A stretch of 55,868 nt of DNA from a virus. Lineage: Duplodnaviria > Caudoviricetes. Where the stretch lies: the IMG/VR virus record IMGVR_UViG_3300009081_000016, positions 1 to 55,868 of that record; one strand, 5' to 3'. A program made the position numbers and the translations under genes. The notes below the pieces were generated by a model. It ran no database searches. It worked only from the letters and a program-made list of their open reading frames with translations, and was not told the origin of the DNA. Below, in pieces: positions 13,110 to 53,858 of the stretch. Position 1 is the first letter of the stretch, and each line of letters opens with the position of its first letter.

Positions 13110-13596
13110 CTGATCTATCCCCTAATATGGAAATAACAGAAGTCAGTTCCCGGAGCAGATACGGGAGCAGCGCATGCGGATCGATGGGGGTGGGTTCTGG
13201 AACGATCCGCTCGTGGCGGTATTTTCTTACAGCCAGTTGTATGGCTTCGGCCAGACGATCTTCCACCAAACCGTTATCCGACTCGTTACCGGATCCACGT
13301 GAGGATGCTACGGCCCCGATCAAGGCGTATCCTGCGAGGTCAGTCCAAGGGTCTTCCTGGAGTGCAGATGGTGCGTGGGCAATACGCATGATCTTATCGA
13401 ATATTCTACCTAGTATAAAGGAGTCCCGCATTCGTTCGGGAGGAATTCCTTGGGGCCACAACAGAGAAAAGAATCGACCCACCACAAACGCACTACTTCC
13501 ATAGGAAGCATTTTTGTGGCCCAACAATTTTCCCAGAGAATCCCCCCGACTTAGAAATTCTTCGGATAGGGTCTTGAAGTTTTTAGGCTGGGCCAT
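13093..13596 (-). CDS. Nucleotide-modification-associated domain protein (Nmad1/DUF1599-like)
   Basis: KNASYGSS...RIFDKIMRI...EDPWTDLAGYALI; GGAG before ATG 13596. Confidence 0.7.
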   Translation of the reverse strand: MAQPKNFKTLSEEFLSRGDSLGKLLGHKNASYGSSAFVVGRFFSLLWPQGIPPERMRDSFILGRIFDKIMRIAHAPSALQEDPWTDLAGYALIGAVASSRGSGNESDNGLVEDRLAEAIQLAVRKYRHERIVPEPTPIDPHALLPYLLRELTSVISILGDRSDADSQ

Positions 13597-14320
13597 CGAA
13601 TAGACTCCCATTAAATATCTGAAGACGAATTTCCTGATACAAAGTTGTTTTAATTTCCATGGGTATTCTCCCTTTTTCATCATGAATAAAGGGAGCCAAG
13701 ATAAAACCACAAAGGGTTTCAAAGTTCGATCGGCCATTCCCGTCGGGTTTATCATTCCTGCAAAAAATACAGGGATTTAAACTGTCCTCGGGCAAACGCC
13801 GTGAGGCCAATTCTTCACACAAACTATTTGTGGTGATCTTCAAAACGTCAGCCATTTCCGGATCGGGGTTCCCTTTCTTCAGTTCCTGAGTGGCGTAAAG
13901 GTGCAGTTCGAGACGATCGAAGAACTTGACAACTCGAAACTCCAAACTGCTTAGACCCAAATCAGGGTGCGCCTCATTTACCCTATCCATGGAGGTGACT
14001 TCCGCCGAATACAGTTCTTCCCGAAATTTCTCGGAAGCAAAATTTTTGAAGGGATAGGGAATATCCCCTGAAAAGGCTTCAGGCCAATCGTGCTTAAGAA
14101 TACCACGAGATACTCTTACCTGATCCACACAAAAGCAGGGCCAAAACATTTCGTGCAGGAGCAGCGCAAATAACGTGTGCTCCGCTACGCTACGCTTCTC
14201 GTAGGTAAACATTAGACCGCAGTGGTTGATTCGCGATAACCGTTCATAGCTATTATATTTACGATGGCAAGGAATCGCGGCCTCTGTAAGTTGATACAGT
14301 CTATCATTGCTCTGGAACAT
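13583..14320 (-). CDS. HD-domain 5'-deoxynucleotidase (YfbR-like)
   Basis: SVAEHT, LKHDWPEAFSGDIPYPFK, VKFFDRLE; AAGGAG before ATG 14320. Confidence 0.88.
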   Translation of the reverse strand: MFQSNDRLYQLTEAAIPCHRKYNSYERLSRINHCGLMFTYEKRSVAEHTLFALLLHEMFWPCFCVDQVRVSRGILKHDWPEAFSGDIPYPFKNFASEKFREELYSAEVTSMDRVNEAHPDLGLSSLEFRVVKFFDRLELHLYATQELKKGNPDPEMADVLKITTNSLCEELASRRLPEDSLNPCIFCRNDKPDGNGRSNFETLCGFILAPFIHDEKGRIPMEIKTTLYQEIRLQIFNGSLFDGPA

Positions 14321-15680: not shown

Positions 15681-15683
15681 GAG

Positions 15684-15778
15684 AACGGGAGGCGGGATTC
15701 GAACCCGCACGCACCATGATCAGTACAGAGGGGAAACGAAGAAAACCCTCTCGCGTCTACCATTTCCGCCACTCCCGT
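15684..15778 (-). tRNA. tRNA-Leu-like (class II) element with aberrant 15-nt anticodon loop; no encoded CCA
   Basis: ACGGGAG-TG-GCGGAAATGGTAGACGC-G-AGAGG[gttttcttcgtttcc]CCTCT-long variable arm-GCGGG TTCGAAT CCCGC-CTCCCGT-T. Confidence 0.8.
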
Positions 15779-15802
15779 TACCTACGCGATGGCCGGAACG
15801 AA

Positions 15803-16711
15803 TTATTCCGGGTCTTCCCAACCCGCCTTCTCGTTGATGGCGGTGATGATGCGGAGACGATTCACCTGACGGGTCTTGGACTCTTTCCATGTCACGCCCA
15901 TCTTCTTGGCGAACTTCTCGAGAGCCTCGTCGTCGGCGAGCTCGTCCTTCAGCATCTTCTTGAACTTCGCCTGGGTGATTTCCTCGTCATCGTCTCCGGA
16001 CTTTTTCTTCGGGGGTTTCTCCTCCGTACCGCCGTTCTCTTCACCCTTGGTTCGGTTCCGGATGTCCTTCTCGTCTACGTCCTTCAGGGCGACGGCGTCT
16101 TCCTCCTCTTCCCCCGCGATCAGAACGTGGAGTTTCTTCTTGATCTTGACGATCTTGGCTTTCACCCAGTTGTCGTCTTCATCCCGCACCCAGACCTTGT
16201 CGTCTTCCTCGAGATCATCGAGGTCGTCGATCTTCGTGCCCGGAGCGGCGGACTTCTTTTCCTTGGGGGGTTTGTCTTCCCCTTCATCCGCGTTCTTGCC
16301 CTTCTTGGGCTTGGCTTCCACGCCGACCGTAAGGGTCTCGGAGTCTTCATCCCAACCGAGAGCGCACGTACCGTTGTCCGCCAGCTGTTCTGAGATCTCT
16401 CCGATGGCCAACGCAACGGCGGCTACGAGGGCGGAGTCGAGTTCTTTTTTCTTTGTCATGGATTTGGTTTCCTGCGTAATGGTTTGCTTTTGGGGCTGAA
16501 CGAGAAAGATTGGAGAGTTTTTCTTGAGACCGCTCCCAACTTCAACTCCCTCGGATTCAATGTACTTCAAAAGTTGGGGGGAGAAGCCACGGGTGCTTCC
16601 ATAGTTACCCAGTGTGTAGTTGATCACCTGTTTGCGTGCCCGATCATCGGGACACAGTTCATCGAGTTCACTCAGGTTCAACTCGTCCATAAGTTTGCTT
16701 AGGTCATACAC
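15803..16711 (-). CDS. Highly charged K/E/D-rich protein with Tudor/SH3-like and C-terminal HeH-like segments; second in-frame start at 16459
   Basis: LEEDDKVWVRDEDDNWVKAKIVKI; C-terminal ALEKFAKKMGV...RLRIITAI; TTAGGAGG before GTG 16711. Confidence 0.7.
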   Translation of the reverse strand: MYDLSKLMDELNLSELDELCPDDRARKQVINYTLGNYGSTRGFSPQLLKYIESEGVEVGSGLKKNSPIFLVQPQKQTITQETKSMTKKKELDSALVAAVALAIGEISEQLADNGTCALGWDEDSETLTVGVEAKPKKGKNADEGEDKPPKEKKSAAPGTKIDDLDDLEEDDKVWVRDEDDNWVKAKIVKIKKKLHVLIAGEEEEDAVALKDVDEKDIRNRTKGEENGGTEEKPPKKKSGDDDEEITQAKFKKMLKDELADDEALEKFAKKMGVTWKESKTRQVNRLRIITAINEKAGWEDPE

Positions 16712-18659: not shown

Positions 18660-18946
18660 GAGACTCTTGTAAGATCTCCCTGTGAGGAGACATTCCAAAC
18701 GGGATCGGCGCTGTTGGACGCCAAAAAGTTGTAGCCCGATTCCATTGTCCGAAGGATACTAACCATTTCGGGACGTGCCTTGCTTAAGGAACTCCTTTCA
18801 TACCACAACGTAGAACACCCGAAGTATTCCACCTCTTCGGAGGGGGGAACTCCCAAAATCTTTTGGGCTATCCATGAGTGAAAGAGGCGCAGGGTAATGT
18901 TGAAGAATCCTCGGTGGCTTGTTATGGCAACCAATTCGTAAGTCAT
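18656..18946 (-). CDS. Hypothetical early protein
   Basis: ATGA-coupled at both ends. Confidence 0.65.
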   Translation of the reverse strand: MTYELVAITSHRGFFNITLRLFHSWIAQKILGVPPSEEVEYFGCSTLWYERSSLSKARPEMVSILRTMESGYNFLASNSADPVWNVSSQGDLTRVS

Positions 18947-19359
18947 AGAGACGTCCCTTCCTTCGTCGGCGAAGAAAACTTTGAATCGCCGTCACAAATG
19001 TCGAGTAGAACACGCAGTTGCAAATTGGGGCGGTCACTCTCATATACCACAATCGGAACCTCAGACCAGTGGACATCGTCGGCGTCCCAATACCGCCGAG
19101 TGGTTCCCTCAACTTCCTGGAGGTATAGGGTATGGGTGTAGCGGGACATTGATATACCGCTTACCCGGAAACCCGCCTCCGTAGCCTTCTTATATAGGTA
19201 CTCAATCTGTCGGCATACGGTATGGTCTTCGTACGACTTCTCGTTTAACCTCCCGGCCAAGATAATCGCGTCCGGATCAGATCGGCAAGTGTACTCCTCC
19301 AAATCTCCAGGGATGCTGTACACGTTACGACCTCGGGCCTCGAACTTTTGATTGGACAT
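18943..19359 (-). CDS. Hypothetical early protein (downstream of hammerhead 1)
   Basis: TTAGGAGG RBS before ATG. Confidence 0.75.
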   Translation of the reverse strand: MSNQKFEARGRNVYSIPGDLEEYTCRSDPDAIILAGRLNEKSYEDHTVCRQIEYLYKKATEAGFRVSGISMSRYTHTLYLQEVEGTTRRYWDADDVHWSEVPIVVYESDRPNLQLRVLLDICDGDSKFSSPTKEGTSL

Positions 19360-19384
19360 AATAGAATCCTCCTAAAGTGTTCCC

Positions 19385-19463
19385 TGGCTTGCCATCATCG
19401 GTGCCTACGTAGCCAACGTAGACAGAAGAAAGAGGTGGTCACGGCACCTCTTTCGTTTCGGCA
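19385..19463 (-). ncRNA. Type II hammerhead ribozyme with pseudoknot (HHR-1)
   Basis: tgcc GAAA c gaaagaggtg-loop-cacctctttc t TC | tgtctacgt tggct acgtaggca CCGATGA t ggca agcca; loop I tggct pairs with 3' tail agcca. Confidence 0.85.
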
Positions 19464-19484
19464 TAGGGGAGGAAGAGAAAAGGA

Positions 19485-19799
19485 TCAGTCGGCGTTTGCC
19501 TTCAGTTCCTTGCGGTATTCCCGCACCTCGCGGACGGTGTCGGAAAGATAGGCAATCACGACCTTCGCGGACTGGTGCATCCGGCACTCGTTGCGCTTCG
19601 CATGAAACTTGATGGCCTTCTTCCAGTCGCCGGAATCAACCAAGCCGATTTCCGCCTTGTCCAGCGGATAGCGGTCTACCAGCTTGACGCGTTCGACGTT
19701 CTTTTCGGCTTTGGCTTTCTTCTTGGCTTTCTTCTTGCCGCCGTTGGAGGTTTCGTCTTCTTCGTGACGATGCTTTTTCGCTACTTTGATTTTCGCCAT
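19485..19799 (-). CDS. Small Lys-rich basic protein
   Basis: MAKIKVAKK...KKKAKKKAK; GGGAG before ATG 19799. Confidence 0.75.
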   Translation of the reverse strand: MAKIKVAKKHRHEEDETSNGGKKKAKKKAKAEKNVERVKLVDRYPLDKAEIGLVDSGDWKKAIKFHAKRNECRMHQSAKVVIAYLSDTVREVREYRKELKANAD

Positions 19800-19856
19800 G
19801 ATCGGATCTCCCATGATTTGGGTTTGTGGTTTTCCGTAATAACGGAGGGTATTGTT

Positions 19857-20276
19857 TTAGGCGTGCAACAGACCACCGCCAGTAGCGGCAGTATCAGACA
19901 TAACTTCAGGTATCTTGATCGCGACCTCCTTCGGAGAGGCCTGAACCTTCCAAGTGAGCAGACCCCAAACGGAGAGTTCGCTGCCTTCTGTCTCGGACGT
20001 TACCTGAATTCCGTAGGCTTCGGCCACCGTGGCCGCAGGATCAAAACCTGTGTATTCGTGCTCGATTGCCTTGCGGATCTTGGTGGAACTGAGCGAAGTA
20101 GGAATGCCTTCGTGGCCCTCGATCGTGGATGTAAAACCGCTTATCAGTTCCTTAAACGTAAGATCGGCATCGAGCGAAACAGAGAATAGCGATTCTCCCG
20201 GTCGGTTGTGGTGGTCGGTAAGATTATCGGCCCCACAAACGTCAATTTGTTTGAATGAACAGCCATAGGTTGGCAT
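19857..20276 (-). CDS. Hypothetical early protein
   Basis: CCTTAGGAGGACTT-ATG leader. Confidence 0.75.
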   Translation of the reverse strand: MPTYGCSFKQIDVCGADNLTDHHNRPGESLFSVSLDADLTFKELISGFTSTIEGHEGIPTSLSSTKIRKAIEHEYTGFDPAATVAEAYGIQVTSETEGSELSVWGLLTWKVQASPKEVAIKIPEVMSDTAATGGGLLHA

Positions 20277-20300
20277 AAGTCCTCCTAAGGATTGTTAAAC

Positions 20301-20714
20301 CTAAATCACAGTTCGCGGGTGTATCAGGTGATTGTCTTGGATCTGGTGGTGGAGAAACACTGTGTGAGAACCGTCTCCGGTAATAGGGAGGTAGATGTCC
20401 AACGAGTCCATGGAAGCATCCATTTCGTCGGTGTATCGATAGTAGTCCAGATCCCGAAACGACCCTCCCCACTCGAGCATAAGTTCGGAAGTGTTTTGCG
20501 AGTGCAGATAGACACGAACCAATTCTCCCAAACAAGTAACGGTCAGCTGGTAGGCGGAATCCCAAACTTGCATAATAAAACCGTTGGGGGAGCGTCCAGT
20601 GAGCGGCAAATTAATCACCCGCAAAGCGGGGGAGAAGGATCCATGAGTGAACGATCGTTTCAGAATCTTCTTGAAATCGTTCACCGTCTTGGGTTTGGGC
20701 AGTACCTTAATCAT
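20301..20714 (-). CDS. Hypothetical early protein
   Basis: AAAGGAG RBS; ATGA coupling. Confidence 0.7.
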   Translation of the reverse strand: MIKVLPKPKTVNDFKKILKRSFTHGSFSPALRVINLPLTGRSPNGFIMQVWDSAYQLTVTCLGELVRVYLHSQNTSELMLEWGGSFRDLDYYRYTDEMDASMDSLDIYLPITGDGSHTVFLHHQIQDNHLIHPRTVI

Positions 20715-21295
20715 CGGTAGCTCCTTTCAACAAAGGAAACAAAGCCGAAGAAGAAAACGACGTCCTCCGTCGGTTCCTTATCGTTTGGATCGTCTTTCGC
20801 CAACAGAACCTGCCCAACGTTTGGATCGAGTGCCAACCAATCGGTAATGGCGTGTTCCGCCTCATCCAATTCGATCCCTGCCTCCAGAGCAGAAACCATC
20901 AACGCATCGTTATTGGAGAGAAGCGATTCTACCATCTCTCGTTGCGTGGTATTATTGTTCAGATAGATGAAACTGAATCCAGGGAGTTCTACCGAAGGAA
21001 ACTGCGAGATGGGGCTAATCCCCAGCGTAACGAAGACAACCCTTCGGGGAGGTCTCCCGAAGATAATTGGTTTCGTACCATCGCAGAGGTTGTTTCCGAT
21101 GATCGAAAGGTTGCATAAATAATTGGTAACGGTTTTGAAGGATGGGTCGTTACGGATGACCCGGTCTTCCTCAACGTAGACTATGTTCGGTTCGCTATCT
21201 TGGGGGAGGTCCCCCAAAACATAACCACCAATCTCTGGTCTCCACAAGCAGCCATTCTCGGTCAACCAGTTTTTTACTTGTCGGGAAGTAAGCAT
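20711..21295 (-). CDS. Hypothetical early protein (downstream of hammerhead 2)
   Basis: TTAGGAGG RBS; first gene after the large non-coding region. Confidence 0.75.
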   Translation of the reverse strand: MLTSRQVKNWLTENGCLWRPEIGGYVLGDLPQDSEPNIVYVEEDRVIRNDPSFKTVTNYLCNLSIIGNNLCDGTKPIIFGRPPRRVVFVTLGISPISQFPSVELPGFSFIYLNNNTTQREMVESLLSNNDALMVSALEAGIELDEAEHAITDWLALDPNVGQVLLAKDDPNDKEPTEDVVFFFGFVSFVERSYR

Positions 21296-21326
21296 GACAG
21301 AATCCTCCTAAGGAGTTGAAACCGTG

Positions 21327-21405
21327 GGCTTGTCATCATCGGTGTGTAGGGAGCCACCCTAACACAGAACGCCAGGTTGCGGGAACAATACCTGGCGTTT
21401 TCGAC
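21327..21405 (-). ncRNA. Type II hammerhead ribozyme with pseudoknot (HHR-2)
   Basis: gtc GAAA acgccaggt-loop-acctggcgt TC | tgtgt(t)aggg tggct ccctacaca CCGATGA t gac aagcc. Confidence 0.88.
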
Positions 21406-22020
21406 GTCGAAAAGGTAGCGGCCGACATCTCGCTTCCGGTCGTGGGCTGATTACCTGTGAACTCCAGTTTTAAACCAGAACAAACCGTTTTCTGAACAGA
21501 CCTTTCGCGTCCCATTGAATTCGCCCACTCCCTCCGCAAGTTTCTCAACTTGGGGTCGGCTAATGAGGGCATGAGAAAGAGCAAGGCGTGGTTTTCGCGA
21601 TAACCGCGAGAGACGCTACCGGGATTCAGCGGCACAGACGGGGGTCCCTTTCCAAAGGGGGTCAACCGTCGTCATGTCAGAGAACCGTAACCTTTACGCA
21701 TTCAATTTACAAAGAAAAAACCGCTTTCGCAAGAACTTTCTGGGGTTTCTTAGGGCTACTAAGTTAAGCAAAACCGGAAACTTAGGGGTAAAAGCACCTG
21801 AAAAGGAGAGGCGTAACAACCCCCCTTTGGGCCCCTTTTCGGGGGGTATTAAGTTACGCAAAAAAAGAAAGTTAGCCAAAATCGTCCTTTAAAGCCTCTT
21901 CAGGGCGTCCCCAGCTGGGGGGGTATAAAACCCCTAACGGCCGGAATACCCCCCGTAGACGACCCCCCAGGAGGGTAAAACCCCCGATAACGGGGTCTTC
22001 ATGAAGTAAAACGTCTGAAA

Positions 22021-22108
22021 AGGGGGGGTTGCTCACCCCCCTATAATATGTATTATCTATTATATAGAGTTATACATATTTAAGAATAGCTAACGCTATT
22101 CTTAAATA
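22021..22108. other. Candidate replication origin: AT-rich tract with tandem inverted repeats
   Basis: Perfect 14-bp IR tatttaagaatagc-taac-gctattcttaaata (22077-22108), aatatgtat/atacatatt IR, agggggg/cccccct; immediately downstream of primase. Confidence 0.5.
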
Positions 22109-22119
22109 GCTCTCGCGTC

Positions 22120-23031
22120 TTACGACGGCGAGAGCCTAAGACGAAGAGAGGAAATTCTGGAAAGGGTTTTAGCCGAAGAAATTTGTGTAACGAGTTGTGC
22201 TATATCCGAACTTCCGGGATCCTTTCCTGGGCATTCCGCGATACGTACAGAAGAGGCTCCTCGATTCTTAAGTTGTTCTCCCAACCAAATAGAGTCTCTA
22301 AGAGCATCTTGGTCCAAGCAGATAATAAATTCTTTTCTGGGAAAAGTGGAAACCAGAAGATCCAACTGTGCCCCACTGGGTCTCTTCCCTAAAAGACCCA
22401 CAAAGTGGGGGAACACACAATCGAAGGCTCCTTCCACTAAAACCGGAACAAGCGGGTGTAGATACACAGCTGCCTGTAGATTATAAAGCGCTCGATCCTT
22501 GCTCATCTTGGGGTTTAGGTACTTTGGTTCAAGACCGGATACAATGGATCGGGCGGTGTGATAAACCAAATTATTCTGGTCATCGAAGCAGGGGAGTATA
22601 ACACGGTTGTACAATCGGCGATTGAACGAATACCCAACCCTCCGATCAGCGATCATCTCGTCTGTCCACCCCCGAATGTGCAGATAGTTCCGAACTCGCT
22701 CTGCATATCGTAACTCCCCCTCTTTCTGCTTCCCCAATTCGGTAAAGCCTGCTATTGCTACGTCTGGTGATGTCTCTTTCGTTTCTTGTTGCCGAGTTTT
22801 TTCGTGGACATAGATGCTGCCGTCGTATTCCCGGAGCATCTTAGAAAGCGTTGTAGAGTATCCACAACGGAAACAATGGCACACGCCTAAGTCATCATTT
22901 ATAGAAAGGTGGAAACTCGTATCGGGGCTAAGACCCCTAAGAGTACAGAATGGGCAGCTAACGCCATACTCTGTTCCATTCTTCCCGCTACTCTCCTTAT
23001 ACATCCCAAACTTTCTGAGATATTCCTTCAC
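22120..23031 (-). CDS. DNA primase (CHC2 zinc finger + TOPRIM)
   Basis: CPFC...H...CHCFRCG, RVILP, PKYLNP, VLVEGAFD, CLDQD. Confidence 0.93.
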   Translation of the reverse strand: MKEYLRKFGMYKESSGKNGTEYGVSCPFCTLRGLSPDTSFHLSINDDLGVCHCFRCGYSTTLSKMLREYDGSIYVHEKTRQQETKETSPDVAIAGFTELGKQKEGELRYAERVRNYLHIRGWTDEMIADRRVGYSFNRRLYNRVILPCFDDQNNLVYHTARSIVSGLEPKYLNPKMSKDRALYNLQAAVYLHPLVPVLVEGAFDCVFPHFVGLLGKRPSGAQLDLLVSTFPRKEFIICLDQDALRDSIWLGEQLKNRGASSVRIAECPGKDPGSSDIAQLVTQISSAKTLSRISSLRLRLSPS

Positions 23032-44272: not shown

Positions 44273-46726
44273 CTATCTCTTCTGAATTATATAGCCCTGC
44301 ATGTAGATGCGCGGTCTTTTTGCTTCTACGCCTTCACTTGAATTGAAATACACATATCGGGTTGCGGCTGGATACTCTGGGGAAAGTACGGCAAGACCAA
44401 AGTTCTTCGTAGAGTCCGCTACCATTTCGTTAATCGCATATCCTAATCCTCCAAACCATACCACTCCTGTATCTGACGCGCTTATAACCTGTGTTCCATA
44501 ATTCTGTGATCCATAACGAGGATCACACCATACATCATTAGGGGCATCATACCCTGTCCAGTTCCAACACACCTCGGTTGCAGTGGCGACATTGGACGTT
44601 CCGTATCCATCTCCCTCTTTCCATAAACAGTTTGTGACATGAACTTCGATGAGGGGCGTCCCGACCACCTTGAAAATATAGCCACCAAACTTTGCATCAT
44701 TGATAACAATTCCTCGGTTATGCAACAGTGCAAAACTATTATAGAAAAATCCTATGTACTGTGCGGGGCCAGTTGTTGAGTACCCAACAGTAATTGAATC
44801 CCTCGCCCCCCATTCAGAGGTAGGGGCAGAGGATGCAATGTGGGCATCCTCCGAGAAATACATCGTCGTGTCCCAGTAGACACGCTGAGAGTCAGAGTGT
44901 AGGGCAACTATGTAGTAACCCGAATATGATAAACTTGGCCAGTTAGCCAGTTGAACATTCTGCCGTGAGCTAAATGCCGCGCTCCGATTAGACGTAGAAT
45001 CCGACTTCTTAATAATAAGGCCGAAATTTGTGAGGGGGTCATTTACAAGCGATTGCACCAAGGACGTAATTGTCCATGAGTACCGATTGGTATCATTTGC
45101 AATTGCAACTGTATCATTTGCGTTCCCACTACACATCGTATTCATTGGGCGATCCCACAAACTATGACCGCGATCTATGGTGTCTCCAGTCACGGACAAT
45201 GAATCAAATTTTGACCATCCTCTCCAGTCCCAGCAAGCCCCAGCAGTATCAATAGCTCCCATTTGGGTGCCCTCCACCCAATCTGATGCTGCCTTAAACA
45301 CGCTCACGTTGGTAGGATCTGTTACGGATACAGCACTTGCACCAAATAAACCCTCTGTAATAACGATACAACAGTCTTCATAAGCCAATGGGAAATATAC
45401 CTGACTCTGCATAGTATCAGAGTTAACACCCGCATAGAGAGCAGTGCTGATACCATAATTACGAGTAGTGTAATTCTTGCTAATGTGGGCATCAGCCGTA
45501 GGTGAAGCCGTTGCAGCAAAGGGGATAAACTTTACGCTGTCTGACAACTCTACCGTGAAGGGTGCAGAAGTATCGCACAAGAAATGATGGGCAGCACTCA
45601 TGAGCCGAATACGAGCACTATCTGCACTCACCGAGGGTTTCCACAGATACACCCCGTTATTCGGAGTGCTCTGCGTGATGAGTTCCCAATTCCCCGATGG
45701 GTAATTCCGATCCCACTCGATACGCACATGACCCGCAAAATTAGCTGTACTCCACTTGATCGTGTCCTCGTTGGCAACGTAGATTGTTGCACCACTACCA
45801 GGTTTCGTAAGTGCAAACAACGTGGAAGGATGAATTCCAACCAATGCCCGATTTAATTCTGGAATGGAGTCGGCGGGAAGGTTGTTAACATACCACCATC
45901 CCGTCCGATCCGCATGATTTATCTCTAACCCATAATTAAAATGTAGTTGGTTTCTACCGTTATAGACTCGCCAACCATCACATACTACTGCATGGTCGTT
46001 AATACGATATAGTATGGGACGACCCAAATTAAGCTGCGCTTGCAATATTTCAAACCAAGCGGTTGAGTCATAATCACTGCGTAGTAAACGACGTGCTCCG
46101 CTTGCATAGCCAAAATGTCTGTTAATTACTTTCCCCGCCAAACTATCCCACATCGCCCCTGCGTAGGAGGACGACCTTATGGTGCCATAGTCCATTTCTA
46201 TGGCTACGCCAATTTCGTAACACAACTCTGCAACGGCGGCTCTCTGGTCAGCGGAGGCTATGGCTGTTAAATCGCCTGTTCCCCATATGTTGTATCTTCC
46301 GAGTATCTCCTCCCAATCATACTCATCCGAGAAGGTTGCTGATAAGTTCTGTCCCTCAGTCTCACCCGCACCCGTACTATCCCCATCCCAAGCGTAGGTA
46401 TGCGATCCAAAACCACTGGCAGGATATTGCCAATACTCCATAATCATCCCAAGTGCTGTGGCTACACAACCCGCTCTACAGCGTGTGCCACCAACCCCCG
46501 TCGGACAATCCTCGTTCCACGGTGAATATTGATCCCAATATATGTCCCCTAATAACGGTTTAACTTGACTCTTAACTGGAGCCGGTTCTGGATCGGAAAT
46601 GATATTACCCGCTGTTCGCTTCGTTGGGTTTTCGCCCCACCGAATTCGCGCCCAATCCCAATCAGTGTCTTGAGCAAAAGACACCGACTGAAAAAGAACA
46701 AAGAGAAGTAAAAATACTCTAATCAT
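44273..46726 (-). CDS. Secreted peptidase C10 (streptopain/SpeB-like) with Ig-like and two DNRLRE-like domains
   Basis: Signal peptide (MIRVFLLL...VSFA-Q); WDQYSPWN, AGCVATA (Cys), AELCYEIGVAIEMDYG, HAVVCDG (His), HFNYG; DAHI...NYG/EWG...F.S.(Q/E)...P repeated twice. Confidence 0.88.
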   Translation of the reverse strand: MIRVFLLLFVLFQSVSFAQDTDWDWARIRWGENPTKRTAGNIISDPEPAPVKSQVKPLLGDIYWDQYSPWNEDCPTGVGGTRCRAGCVATALGMIMEYWQYPASGFGSHTYAWDGDSTGAGETEGQNLSATFSDEYDWEEILGRYNIWGTGDLTAIASADQRAAVAELCYEIGVAIEMDYGTIRSSSYAGAMWDSLAGKVINRHFGYASGARRLLRSDYDSTAWFEILQAQLNLGRPILYRINDHAVVCDGWRVYNGRNQLHFNYGLEINHADRTGWWYVNNLPADSIPELNRALVGIHPSTLFALTKPGSGATIYVANEDTIKWSTANFAGHVRIEWDRNYPSGNWELITQSTPNNGVYLWKPSVSADSARIRLMSAAHHFLCDTSAPFTVELSDSVKFIPFAATASPTADAHISKNYTTRNYGISTALYAGVNSDTMQSQVYFPLAYEDCCIVITEGLFGASAVSVTDPTNVSVFKAASDWVEGTQMGAIDTAGACWDWRGWSKFDSLSVTGDTIDRGHSLWDRPMNTMCSGNANDTVAIANDTNRYSWTITSLVQSLVNDPLTNFGLIIKKSDSTSNRSAAFSSRQNVQLANWPSLSYSGYYIVALHSDSQRVYWDTTMYFSEDAHIASSAPTSEWGARDSITVGYSTTGPAQYIGFFYNSFALLHNRGIVINDAKFGGYIFKVVGTPLIEVHVTNCLWKEGDGYGTSNVATATEVCWNWTGYDAPNDVWCDPRYGSQNYGTQVISASDTGVVWFGGLGYAINEMVADSTKNFGLAVLSPEYPAATRYVYFNSSEGVEAKRPRIYMQGYIIQKR

Positions 46727-48658: not shown

Positions 48659-50233
48659 CTACCATCCCACTTGTTTGAAAGGTTTCTTCTTCCGCAATTG
48701 CCAGGCTATGGCCAAAGCGAGAACCAAATCATCATTACTACCCGACTGGGCTTCTACCTTCCCACTTGGTTTCTCTACGAAGGTCAAACATTCCCGCAAC
48801 TGTATCACGTCATGAATAGTAACATAACCATTTAATATCGCATCGGCAAGATCGTCCAACATAATAGGACGACTCTTTCCATCCGTTGACCAACCAGGAC
48901 GAGTTTCGTTCTTTCGGGCAATTTCATCGTAGGAAGTGTAATGATAGATATAACGCTGTGGAACGTGCTCCGCTTCCATCAGAGCGAGAAGCACAGCATG
49001 ACCGTGATTATTGCGCTCTATTCCCCAAAGAACATCCCCGTATATATGAATAGAATGGGCGATCTGACGCGCAAACATCCGAGGGCCAAAACGGCTGTGA
49101 ATTACGGCAACCTCTTCACCTGTCTCCTTATCAAGAATTGCCCCAGCATCGTAATCCCCACCGGATATTCCTTCCGCCGTATCGCCGCCACCAACGTATG
49201 ATCTTCCGGGAACGGGTAATGTATAAACTCTCCAACCTAAAGGTATAGCCGTCCCGTTGGACCAATGCTTCAGTGGCTGCTTCTTCTCAGTAGAATCCAA
49301 TCGTGCCTGAATTCGCCTAACATCGAAGAAGGGTCTCCCGCTGTGAAGAAAGGCTTCCACATCGTCAACCGGAAATTCCTGCGGAAACTTCGCGCGACTC
49401 GTAGACATCGCGGCCCTCTTAACGCGACGCCACTTAATTTGCTCCAGGGTCAGATTGTACTTCTTTATCAGAGCCTTTTCTTCCCGCGTAAGATAATCCG
49501 GACTTTCTGGGTCCAACAACCTTTCTTTTTCCCCCTTCAACAACGGAAGACTGCACTTTGAATCGCCATACCAAGGAAAGAAATGAGGTTTGTATCCTCC
49601 CAATCCAGTTGCTGCTTCTCTCCATCGCGCGAAGAAGTCGTTGTATCCATTAGCCGTTGTTTCGATGGAGATCTCTCCCGTCAACATAGGAACGCACGGC
49701 TCCAACGCTGCCCACGAATCGGTGGGCAACGGCCAATAGGCATACTCTGAACAGTGAAGAAAGTGAACCACTCCGCTTCGACCCAAGCTCTGTGCTTCTG
49801 TAATGTTTTTTCCTGCCGTCGTTATACTAACCCGACTGTTCAATTCAGGAAAAGTCAGTTCCGTTCTGTTGTTCAGTCCAACTTTAGGTCGTAGTTCGTT
49901 GGGTATCGAGTGGAACATAATCTTTAAGTGCTCAAACAAACCATTTGCACTTTCGCCTTCGTGCGTTACAATTAAAGCAACATACCCCTCTCGCGTACAC
50001 ACCCGAGCGAGCGCCTGTCCTAATTTCAGAGAGGAAAACCCCTGACGACGAGCCTTCAATATCAGATCGCGCTTGGTTCTGTTTTCCCAATAAAGTTCCT
50101 GTACGTTGTTGAAAAGAAACGGAACCATACCCCCGGATTCAGACCGAATGTCAAGAAGCGTCTCGATAAAATACCGCTCGTCCTGAAACAGGCTATCTGT
50201 CAAGTCATAATTACTTTTTGGAAAGGCAACCAT
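48659..50233 (-). CDS. terL: Terminase large subunit
   Basis: ILKARRQGFS, LHCSEYAYW, IETTANG, GGDTAEG..DY, IERNNHG, DDLVLALAIA; start reassigned to ATG 50233 (TAATG). Confidence 0.96.
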   Translation of the reverse strand: MVAFPKSNYDLTDSLFQDERYFIETLLDIRSESGGMVPFLFNNVQELYWENRTKRDLILKARRQGFSSLKLGQALARVCTREGYVALIVTHEGESANGLFEHLKIMFHSIPNELRPKVGLNNRTELTFPELNSRVSITTAGKNITEAQSLGRSGVVHFLHCSEYAYWPLPTDSWAALEPCVPMLTGEISIETTANGYNDFFARWREAATGLGGYKPHFFPWYGDSKCSLPLLKGEKERLLDPESPDYLTREEKALIKKYNLTLEQIKWRRVKRAAMSTSRAKFPQEFPVDDVEAFLHSGRPFFDVRRIQARLDSTEKKQPLKHWSNGTAIPLGWRVYTLPVPGRSYVGGGDTAEGISGGDYDAGAILDKETGEEVAVIHSRFGPRMFARQIAHSIHIYGDVLWGIERNNHGHAVLLALMEAEHVPQRYIYHYTSYDEIARKNETRPGWSTDGKSRPIMLDDLADAILNGYVTIHDVIQLRECLTFVEKPSGKVEAQSGSNDDLVLALAIAWQLRKKKPFKQVGW

Positions 50234-50601
50234 TATTTTACTTTGCTGTCTATGGACTTGACTTTTTCCAGAACCAAAGTAACGTTGGTTTCTGTTCGGT
50301 TGTGACAACCACGTGCTTCTGTCGTCCACCCACTAAATTCGGAATGCATGGCCGCTGTCTCGAAATGTAATCGTTCGAGGGTAGCGATCTGCTGCCGCAT
50401 AAGATTCACTTGTTCTTCGGACGTCTTTTGAAAGGCCTCAACCAGAGTCTGAGCTACGACATTGGCATCATTTGTTTTTCGGTTCACGAGAGGCCTGACG
50501 ACCCAGGCGAAGATACCAAATACGACAAAGGTAGCAAATACTACTATCACACCTCCTTCAAGAAGGCGTTGAATAATGGTGGGTTCAAGCACTGGTTCCA
50601 T
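50233..50601 (-). CDS. Membrane-anchored coiled-coil protein (holin-like)
   Basis: One N-terminal TM (GGVIVVFATFVVFGIFAWVV) then coiled coil. Confidence 0.6.
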   Translation of the reverse strand: MEPVLEPTIIQRLLEGGVIVVFATFVVFGIFAWVVRPLVNRKTNDANVVAQTLVEAFQKTSEEQVNLMRQQIATLERLHFETAAMHSEFSGWTTEARGCHNRTETNVTLVLEKVKSIDSKVK

Positions 50602-50625: not shown

Positions 50626-50698
50626 TCGCGGAGCGGGGGACGAGGCCCAAGGAGAACCGTGACCTTACTCCCACCCACAAGACTCCCCCACCCCGCGA
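50626..50698 (-). ncRNA. Structured intergenic RNA with exposed anti-RBS sequence
   Basis: 15-bp stem tcgcggggtggggga/tcccccgctccgcga with two G-U pairs on the minus strand; inner ggag-taaggtcacggtt-ctcc. Confidence 0.55.
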
Positions 50699-50707
50699 TG
50701 AATCAAA

Positions 50708-50992
50708 TTACTTCTTCGGAGGTTTGGGCTTCCCGCCTCCGCTACCTTTCTTACCGCCACCGCATCGGGCCATCTTCTGGATCACCTCCTCCCGAATATA
50801 GGGGATACTATAACACGGCATGTATACCGTATCTCGAGGTTCACCACAAACGAAGATAACAACAGGTTCCCACCGAATCGAATCTCCCAGAGTAACCAAT
50901 TCCGTACTGTCGTTAACGGTAACTTGCCCGGCACGCAACGTTATCGACATCAACAAAAACGGAATAACTTTAAAGAGTAGGCGGAGGCCCAT
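50708..50992 (-). CDS. Small signal-peptide protein; contains in-frame 21-aa mini-ORF (50708..50773) with its own strong RBS
   Basis: AAGGAG before ATG 50992; GGAGGTGA before ATG 50773 (MARCGGGKKGSGGGKPKPPKK). Confidence 0.55.
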   Translation of the reverse strand: MGLRLLFKVIPFLLMSITLRAGQVTVNDSTELVTLGDSIRWEPVVIFVCGEPRDTVYMPCYSIPYIREEVIQKMARCGGGKKGSGGGKPKPPKK

Positions 50993-51713
50993 CGAACCTG
51001 CTCCTTCCTTCGGTGCTCTGTCCCTGCACATGAATGAGACGTATCGAACAACAGAAGTTTTTCCTCCCAAGTCTCTCGGCCTCCGCGCAAATCCAACGAT
51101 CGCTGGCCATATATGGATGGCCTATCTTCATGTACCCGATCTGTTCCAGAAGGTCCTTCGAGTAAAAGTGAAACGCCCCAGTGTTCCATTCCACACTTCT
51201 CATTTCCGGAAACTGATCTGTCCATCGCTCACACTGGTTCAGATGATTCGAATGGCCGATTCCCCCTGCGTGATCGATCAGTGCATCGTCTCCGGTCAAG
51301 ACCGCTCCCATTACTCCGATAAGGGGTTCGTTCTCCCGATAGCAACGAAGTGCTCGGGCCATCCAACCTTCCTGAACGTCGCCGTAACAATCGGGATTCA
51401 TTCCTATGATGTAAGGACCCCCCGCCAAGGTGAGACCCCCGTTCATAGAATTTCCGTACCCGTCCGTTCCTTCTACTGGAACCCAAAACAGGTTCCGATC
51501 GTTCCAGACCATTGTTACTGGCGCAACATTGGAGGAAAATTCGCCCAACAAAATGTTCATAGCACCCACATGATTGGGCGAACTGTGATTGTCTACAACA
51601 ACCAAGTCGAAGTTGGTGTGACCACCATTCTTCAACCCTCTAAGAAACCGAGGAAGAACGTGACTGGAGTTGTGGGTGAGAGTTACAACCGTTATGTGCA
51701 AGGGATCTGTCAT
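50970..51713 (-). CDS. GT2 glycosyltransferase
   Basis: VVTLTHN, VVVDNHS, MNGG, MNPD, DRWIC; ATGA-coupled start 51713. Confidence 0.9.
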   Translation of the reverse strand: MTDPLHITVVTLTHNSSHVLPRFLRGLKNGGHTNFDLVVVDNHSSPNHVGAMNILLGEFSSNVAPVTMVWNDRNLFWVPVEGTDGYGNSMNGGLTLAGGPYIIGMNPDCYGDVQEGWMARALRCYRENEPLIGVMGAVLTGDDALIDHAGGIGHSNHLNQCERWTDQFPEMRSVEWNTGAFHFYSKDLLEQIGYMKIGHPYMASDRWICAEAERLGRKNFCCSIRLIHVQGQSTEGRSRFDGPPPTL

Positions 51714-53232: not shown

Positions 53233-53858
53233 AACTCCCGAACCTTCACCAAGACTTTGTCCACTATACCGATCTTGGGTTGGTTCAAGTCGCAGAATTT
53301 ACGAGCGAAGTGATAGTCCGGAGTATCCCCCCCACCGAACATGATCTGATGTTTCTGGATCAGTGGCCAGCGAAACAGACCATTCGGTGTTCCAAAGTCA
53401 CAACGAGTTGGGATCGTATCGAGATTTCGGGGCACGGCTTCGCCGTTCAGCAGCATGCGACTGACAACCAGATCGAAATCTTCCTCCACTGCCTTGGCCA
53501 CCATTTCCGAGATCCAACTTGGTGCGTAGCCATCATCATCGTCGGCGAATGCAACGTAATCTATCTGAGGCTTGAACATCGAAACCTGAAACATCATTTC
53601 ATTTCGGACAAAGGATCCAGTGTCACGATGCGGTCCGGAATCGAACTGGAACAGGTTAAAAGTACCCGCCTTTCTTCCCTCTCTGGAGTTGATCAAATCC
53701 GCAAGTAGCATCTTCTTCTCCGTCGAGAGTGTCCCGTCTTCCCCCAAAAAGAGATGCAAGAGGGGATAATCCTGCTTTACCAGTTGCAGAAGAGAACCAC
53801 GACTCTCTTCCGGTGGCCGGATCGTGGGTACCAAAACCGCAACTCGGGGGGTGTTCAT
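53223..53858 (-). CDS. GT2 glycosyltransferase
   Basis: VAVLVPT, GEDG, VRN, YVAFADDDD, PDY; ATGA-coupled start 53858. Confidence 0.88.
   Translation of the reverse strand: MNTPRVAVLVPTIRPPEESRGSLLQLVKQDYPLLHLFLGEDGTLSTEKKMLLADLINSREGRKAGTFNLFQFDSGPHRDTGSFVRNEMMFQVSMFKPQIDYVAFADDDDGYAPSWISEMVAKAVEEDFDLVVSRMLLNGEAVPRNLDTIPTRCDFGTPNGLFRWPLIQKHQIMFGGGDTPDYHFARKFCDLNQPKIGIVDKVLVKVRELWT

Follow-up and report, generated by a model that had tools for sequence, protein, structure and literature searches.

Type II hammerhead ribozymes of phages (Rfam family RF02276) are built around an open stem II, a GAAA strand, an A15.1-U16.1 pair and C17, together with the core positions C3 and G5-A9, a short stem II and a pseudoknot of at least 4 bp between loop I and the 3' tail; in the pseudoknotted class this last contact is required for fast cleavage (Perreault 2011, PMC3088659). 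In prophages, multiple hammerheads flank genes or short gene blocks, and it was suggested that long phage transcripts are processed in this way to gene- or operon-length mRNAs (Perreault 2011, PMC3088659). Three type II hammerheads of Desulfovibrio vulgaris, situated near phage-like genes, were detected in the cleaved form in total cellular RNA, from which the cleavage products were captured (Olzog et al. 2021, PMC8782182); their cores are not described as variant in the sections of that paper considered here, and they are likened to the elements presented below by description, not by sequence.

Changes in the catalytic core have been described in several settings. A viroid hammerhead with cytosine in place of uridine at position 4 (U4C) is reported to be considerably less active in vitro, yet to retain sufficient activity in vivo to sustain infection (Ambros and Flores 1998, cited by PMC3088659). 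The natural A6C variant found in an intergenic hammerhead of phage Bcep176 performs poorly with Mg2+ and well with Mn2+ (Naghdi et al. 2020, PMC7151607; Perreault 2011), which shows that phage core variants can function with altered properties. In a comprehensive mutagenesis of a type III hammerhead, co-transcriptional activity was low when one or two positions of the CUGA U-turn were mutated, with a C:G swap as the only rescue (PMC9901934), and U4C may therefore be severely impaired. In our literature search, neither a U4C variant reported for type II hammerheads or for those of phages nor cleavage data for a C4 type II hammerhead came up; the figures and supplements of Perreault 2011, which lay outside this search, might include C4.

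In this study, a predicted C4 hammerhead (HHR-1) was analysed within the window, which comprises an entire virus record (55,868 bp, 55.9 kb) with direct terminal repeats and in which all ORFs of at least 300 aa lie on the minus strand. The features of HHR-1, of a second copy (HHR-2) and of their surroundings are given below; R1 denotes a covariance model built from six canonical U4 type II hammerheads, taken from other viral contigs only (alignment A2).

19382..19464, minus strand: HHR-1, full element resembling a type II hammerhead, C4 (U4C) core (sequence, fold, R1 match)
19463-19460, minus strand: stem II, 3' strand, UGCC (direct reading)
19459-19456, minus strand: core GAAA, i.e. G12, A13 and A14 (19459-19457) followed by A15.1 (19456) (reading, R1 alignment)
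19456 and 19426, minus strand: pair A15.1-U16.1 (reading, R1 alignment)
19455 and 19427, minus strand: mismatch, C15.2 opposite U16.2 (reading, R1 alignment)
19454-19445 and 19437-19428, minus strand: stem III, GAAAGAGGUG and CACCUCUUUC, with loop CCGUGAC (19444-19438)
19425, minus strand: C17; predicted scissile bond 19425/19424, triplet UUC (reading, R1 alignment)
19424-19416 and 19410-19402, minus strand: stem I, UGUCUACGU and ACGUAGGCA, with loop UGGCU (19415-19411)
19401-19395, minus strand: core C3 C4 G5 A6 U7 G8 A9, with C4 at 19400
19394, minus strand: extra U after the core
19393-19390, minus strand: stem II, 5' strand, GGCA
19389-19385, minus strand: 3' tail AGCCA, forming the predicted pseudoknot with the complementary loop I (UGGCU)
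19374-19363, minus strand: ribosome-binding site UAGGAGGAUUCU, followed by the ATG (19359-19357) of a 138-aa ORF
19485..21295, minus strand: four small ORFs (194, 137, 139 and 109 aa) between the two elements
21310-21299, minus strand: ribosome-binding site UAGGAGGAUUCU, followed by the ATG (21295-21293) of a 194-aa ORF
21323..21407, minus strand: HHR-2, a further copy, likewise with C4 in the core (descriptor scan, sequence, R1 match)

The original prediction of a type II topology with stems I, III and II of 9, 10 and 4 bp, respectively, agrees with the minus-strand reading in all parts, and the CCGAUGA core, the extra U and the C15.2/U16.2 mismatch are each present in the sequence. The proposed 5-bp pseudoknot between loop I and the 3' tail has its counterpart in the UGGCU/AGCCA complementarity, and a cut after C19425 would, as foreseen, leave a 65-nt leader (19424-19360) upstream of the start codon at 19359. 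The extra U before stem II had been listed as a peculiarity; it is there, but is no oddity of HHR-1, being common to at least 52 canonical relatives, for which it was fixed in the search pattern. The loop and tail of the pseudoknot recur in 52 canonical relatives, likewise as fixed parts of the pattern. Energy minimisation of 19470..19380 yields this three-way junction as well, at -35.2 kcal/mol (z -3.70), an energy that was matched by one of 200 shuffles.

A three-way junction with loop-closed stems I and III and an open stem II was recovered by folding, by the descriptor scan and in the R1 alignment. Six of the seven positions of the core strand C3-U4-G5-A6-N7-G8-A9 fit, position 4 being C in both HHR-1 and HHR-2, while G12-A13-A14, the A15.1-U16.1 pair and H17 (here C17) are present in HHR-1 and have equivalents in HHR-2. 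A loop I/3' tail pseudoknot of at least 4 bp is predicted for both copies from complementarity of the strands. The window copies carry the open and short stem II, the GAAA strand, A15.1-U16.1, C17, C3 and G5-A9 and the loop I/tail contact described for phage type II hammerheads (RF02276; PMC3088659), and they also share with them the phage context and the occurrence in several copies flanking genes. They differ from the members of RF02276 in having C4 and a stem III that is longer, in both copies, than in most relatives, to which HHR-1 adds the C15.2/U16.2 mismatch; moreover, neither reaches a reportable Rfam score. The single core substitution is the same as in the viroid U4C hammerhead (via PMC3088659), although the latter processes a replicating circular RNA, whereas the window copies are placed in mRNA leaders of a DNA phage. 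Like C4, the A6C change of Bcep176 (PMC7151607) is a natural single-nucleotide core variant of an intergenic phage hammerhead, but at position 6 instead of 4.

The family membership of HHR-1 was assessed with two kinds of covariance model. A search with the Rfam 15 Hammerhead_II model (RF02276, gathering score 37 bits), which had been proposed as a check of the prediction, was negative: neither window copy was reported, no Rfam hammerhead was found across the whole window at the gathering score or at E<=1, and Hammerhead_II gave no match at E<=10 on the 261 nt around HHR-1 (19300-19560). The same model was applied to relatives of identical architecture. Four canonical ones were above the threshold (L041, 52.4 bits; L092, 40.4; L093, 39.3; L083, 38.6), four further matches were below it, and no match was obtained in 4 of the 10 relatives' loci scanned, namely the canonical-core L021, L034 and L016 and the C4 copy L114. 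Since canonical relatives are missed as well, the failure in the window reflects a limit of sensitivity towards this subfamily and is not counter-evidence on membership.

With R1 (filters off), HHR-1 (19464..19382) was matched over the full length with 58.0 bits (E about 6e-13, rough calibration) and HHR-2 (21407..21323), also over the full length, with 55.1 bits, while the third-best match in the whole window had 14.1 bits. Both scores fall within the range of the canonical members (43.9-87.5 bits), and in both alignments position 4 is the sole core difference. On the strength of this full-length match within the canonical range, HHR-1 is clearly homologous, at the level of sequence, to the pseudoknotted type II hammerheads of phages, and the proposal of a type II hammerhead with a U4C core is borne out as far as sequence analysis reaches. 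An alignment of 22 canonical relatives made with MAFFT (A1) was structurally misaligned and was set aside in favour of A2. The descriptor scan of both window strands revealed no canonical CUGANGA hammerhead, and nothing in the phage collection matched 18900-19900 when distant DNA similarity was searched for. Other candidates were rejected: CCGATGAT at 16643-16650 and 20710-20717 (minus strand) is within coding sequence and has no hammerhead around it, and a descriptor match at 13681..13556 has weak stems spread over 126 nt and no R1 match.

HHR-2 is located 1.9 kb upstream of HHR-1, on the same strand. Its descriptor match (21405..21332) has the core CCGAUGA-U, with C4 at 21341, a predicted cut between 21367 and 21366, a 3-bp stem II and a 4-bp pseudoknot (loop UGGCU, tail AGCC). 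The stem sequences of the two copies are different and the stem I loop UGGCU is identical. In both, UAGGAGGAUUCU and then ATG stand 11-16 nt past the end of the model match; the exact motif occurs in the window only at these two places, one behind each hammerhead copy, and none of 100 shuffles reached three matches to it at up to one mismatch. Because of the identical ribosome-binding site, the two copies are probably, by their sequence, one duplicated cassette composed of a ribozyme and a ribosome-binding site, and they do not constitute independent evidence. The upstream flank of HHR-2 contains a palindrome, UUUUCGACGUCGAAAA, which shares nucleotides with stem II and the GAAA core and could form at the expense of the active structure.

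The placement of HHR-1 in an mRNA leader, part of the original prediction, was confirmed. The element sits in a 125-nt gap between the co-directional ORFs 19814..19485 (109 aa) and 19359..18943 (138 aa), directly ahead of the ATG at 19359; it begins 20 nt past the stop codon of the former ORF, and its R1 match ends 22 nt ahead of the start codon of the latter. Upstream of HHR-1 are a primase-like gene (22120-23031), a DnaB-like helicase gene and another helicase gene, and downstream of it genes for thymidylate synthase and a family A DNA polymerase. PHROGs and Pfam assigned no family to the 138-aa ORF or to the four-ORF block, a protein search with the product of the 194-aa ORF found no relatives, and no sigma-70-like promoter was found in 18800-21800. 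About 700 nt separate the primase-like gene from HHR-2 (21408-22119, minus strand), and this stretch contains only short ORFs (109, 61 and 54 aa), of which the 109-aa ORF would stop at a UGA within the HHR-2 ribozyme core.

The position ahead of an ORF was compared among relatives. The next ORF starts within 60 nt in 43 of 48 U4 copies and in all 13 C4 copies, which barely exceeds the 74% of random coding-strand positions. More distinctive is a start at 10-31 nt, observed in 39 of 48 U4 and 13 of 13 C4 copies as against 33% of random coding-strand window positions, and a Shine-Dalgarno-like motif was present in 24/48 and 11/13 copies, respectively, compared with 19% at random.

The recurrence of C4 was then examined in other viruses and in metagenomes. 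Judged by the relatives collected, the extra U, the short stem II, the UGGCU loop and the AGCC tail of HHR-1 are traits of a subfamily and only C4 is unusual, the generality of these traits (extra U, 3-5-bp stem II, UGGCU loop, (A)AGCC tail) being limited to matches of search patterns in which they were fixed. The 15.2/16.2 mismatch is a second deviation of HHR-1; C15.2 as such occurs in 50 of 56 aligned relatives. A first scan of viral contigs, with a pattern consisting of loop I, a core with Y4, the extra U and the tail, gave at least 84 U4 and at least 36 C4 pattern matches. Among the matches listed, 24 with U4 and one real C4 (L114) conformed to the full hammerhead descriptor, and the canonical U4 relatives listed resemble the window elements apart from position 4.

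Complete scans of the viral contigs were performed with one pattern in which a single core position was varied and with validation by R1, the window's own record being left out. The results were as follows:

Position U4 (canonical): 53 pattern matches, 52 validated by R1
Non-U at position 4: 5 pattern matches, 4 validated, all of them C; the A4 match was a chance hit
G5 changed: 0 pattern matches, 0 validated
A6 changed: 5 pattern matches, 0 validated

The absence of validated A6 variants (0/5) in the sub-architecture of the window copies is a further difference from Bcep176. In one complete phage (G003), a C4 copy at 53801..53730 and a canonical U4 copy at 56224..56153 lie 2.4 kb apart, each just ahead of a ribosome-binding site. 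The locus L344 (G003:C1:56153-56224, minus strand) is a canonical U4 type II hammerhead that does not have the extra U, and its pseudoknot covaries (loop GGCCU, tail AGGCC).

A C4-specific pattern yielded 47 loci in metagenome contigs and 30 in species genomes. R1 scored 13 of the metagenome loci at 50.1-73.9 bits, and all other reported R1 matches over the 77 loci were at or below 23.3 bits; none of the 30 matches from the genome collection was a hammerhead by R1. Three of the 13 metagenome loci are on the same contigs as viral records. In total, 16 distinct C4 sequences were obtained, two from the window and 14 from 13 other viral or metagenome contigs, and the G+C content of the set ranges from 0.49 to 0.73. 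They form at least 9 groups whose nearest out-of-group neighbours are mostly U4 sequences (by pairwise identity over about 70 columns, not by phylogeny). In 15 C4 sequences, 98.6% of the alignment cells in stems are standard pairs, both sides changed in 16 of 19 pairs and the covariation score was 0.926, against 0.209 for shuffles (none of 500 reached the observed value) and at most 0.132 for slid partners. These figures are somewhat inflated by the fitting of the alignment to the model and by the close kinship of some sequences. Although GAAA, A15.1-U16.1 and C17 were not among the positions searched for, every C4 copy retains them. Taken from these alignments, the evidence points to continued selection on the fold and on the catalytic core after the U-to-C change.

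We propose, at a probability of roughly two in three (about 0.65), that both elements are homologous type II hammerheads which cut themselves after C17 and process polycistronic phage mRNA. Each element would fold and cut after C17 (19425 in HHR-1, 21367 in HHR-2) while the replication or early-middle region is transcribed, and the polycistronic transcript would be split. On the upstream side of each cut, the RNA would finish with the long stem III hairpin and bear a 2',3'-cyclic phosphate; on the downstream side, it would start at the foot of the stem I hairpin, carry a 5'-OH and have a strong ribosome-binding site within about 40-50 nt of this end. Ends of this kind protect bacterial mRNAs. 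The four-gene block and the next gene would be uncoupled from their neighbours and would have defined, hairpin-protected ends. Given the behaviour of the type III U-turn mutants and the loss of activity of the viroid U4C hammerhead in vitro, the C4 copies are probably slower than their U4 relatives and could be inactive.

RNA-library contigs (two wetland metatranscriptome runs of one study) cover parts of the stretch. One stops at 19408 and another at 21346, which lie 16 nt and 20 nt 3' of the predicted cuts in HHR-1 and HHR-2, respectively, and a third (21204-21500) spans HHR-2 uncut; as contigs can neither show RNA ends nor exclude DNA carry-over, these data count neither for nor against cleavage.

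The uncut contig is, with the same reservation, among the observations that would suit a different interpretation, according to which the elements are catalytically dead descendants of a hammerhead whose fold was kept as an insulator or stabiliser of the leader, or as a protein-binding site for translational control. U4 belongs to the most conserved core positions, the type III U-turn mutants had low activity (PMC9901934), and a location directly ahead of a ribosome-binding site fits a translational operator. Such a descendant, however, would have no need of G12, A13, A14, A15.1-U16.1, C17, G5, A6, G8 and A9, which are kept in the 16 distinct C4 sequences despite diverging stems, even if positions 3-9 were fixed by the search pattern and make up part of this count. 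Nor would the lack of G5 or A6 changes be expected if catalysis were irrelevant. With the core kept, the stems covarying and G5/A6 variants unseen, continued selection is indicated and a dead relic is hard to reconcile with it; we regard loss of catalysis as unlikely, though well short of negligible.

Much less probable is the idea that the chief role of stem III and the U-rich run behind it is intrinsic termination for the upstream gene, to which the likeness to a hammerhead would be secondary. A simple scan does flag 19454..19428 (10 pairs, 5 of them G-C, tail TTCTGTCTAC), and the length of stem III in both window copies would be in keeping with it. The stem III of HHR-2 was not flagged by the same scan, though, and the U-rich tail of HHR-1 is weak and is at the same time part of stem I, whose 5' strand it forms. 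Nor would a terminator account for the pseudoknot, stems I and II and the conserved core; as a primary function it is very improbable.

The original prediction also included control of HHR-1 in trans, with the stem III loop pairing to the apical loop of a hairpin at 50626-50698 and so governing cleavage or folding. The complementarity exists: CCGUGACC faces GGUCACGG at 50664..50657, which shares the transcribed strand with HHR-1 and belongs to the apical part of a long, stable hairpin (50698..50626). But the minus strand contains a single GGUCACGG, and about one is to be expected there by chance (over both strands, the 8-mer had 5 matches, compared with a mean of 1.99 in shuffles), HHR-2 has an unrelated stem III loop, and stem III loops vary freely among the relatives. 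The 8-nt match therefore stands as an observation at chance frequency, it lends no support to control in trans, and we consider such control exceedingly improbable. The hairpin at 50626-50698 (minus strand; -41.2 kcal/mol, z -3.29) occupies the gap between ORFs 51070..50708 and 50601..50233, and, being trailed by A6 and not by a U-run, it is not a classical terminator on the transcribed strand.

A chance resemblance to hammerheads, in line with which Rfam gives no match, is effectively refuted by two R1 matches with E-values of about 1e-12 in 56 kb, next to a following match of 14.1 bits.

Within the reading as self-cutting, mRNA-processing hammerheads, the role of C4 itself can be viewed in two ways. 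U4 gives its N3-H to the U-turn, and cytosine has no N3-H unless it is protonated, so that C4 hammerheads could be conditional or slow ribozymes. That C4 is a tuned state of this kind, conditional or deliberately slow, and not a tolerated defect, appears to us quite unlikely. If it were true, pH, a particular metal, as Mn2+ in the case of A6C, or the time after transcription would govern the cutting, and the phage would gain a processing timer or sensor for the genes downstream of its C4 hammerheads.

In HHR-1, pairing is predicted between the pyrimidine-rich 5' flank UCCUUUUCUCUUCCUCCCCU (19465-19484, minus strand) and the purine-rich 3' flank (19363-19384). The resulting long-range helix would cover part of the ribosome-binding site, enclose the ribozyme and overlap the pseudoknot tail. 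Masking of the ribosome-binding site was rejected as a general mechanism, as HHR-2 has no equivalent of the pairing predicted in HHR-1.

Type II hammerheads of phages are already well known and the class is not new. What is added here is the natural recurrence of U4C, found in 4 of 56 validated viral-contig copies, in two copies in the window and in more from metagenomes, which the standard Rfam model overlooks. That C4 recurs with the fold and the remaining core kept, while G5 and A6 changes are unseen, suggests from the sequences compared that C4 is the one U-turn substitution which evolution tolerates or uses in this type II architecture. The C4 copies make up a cheap test set for the buffering of core mutations by tertiary stabilisation, and they allow one to ask whether natural core variants encode an altered rate, metal or pH dependence, as in the case of A6C. 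The C4/U4 pair of phage G003 is natural material for a side-by-side comparison.

Two further features of the window deserve mention. At 15683-15779 (minus strand) there is an unusually long tRNA-like gene of 96 nt, called tRNA-Glu (anticodon ttc) by ARAGORN and matched weakly in Rfam as tRNA-Sec-like (27.6 bits, gathering score 47). An 817-aa ORF at 44273-46726 (minus strand) matches Peptidase_C10 strongly (E 7e-42) and also has a weak CBM96-like stretch, an unusual cargo for the structural/late region of a phage.
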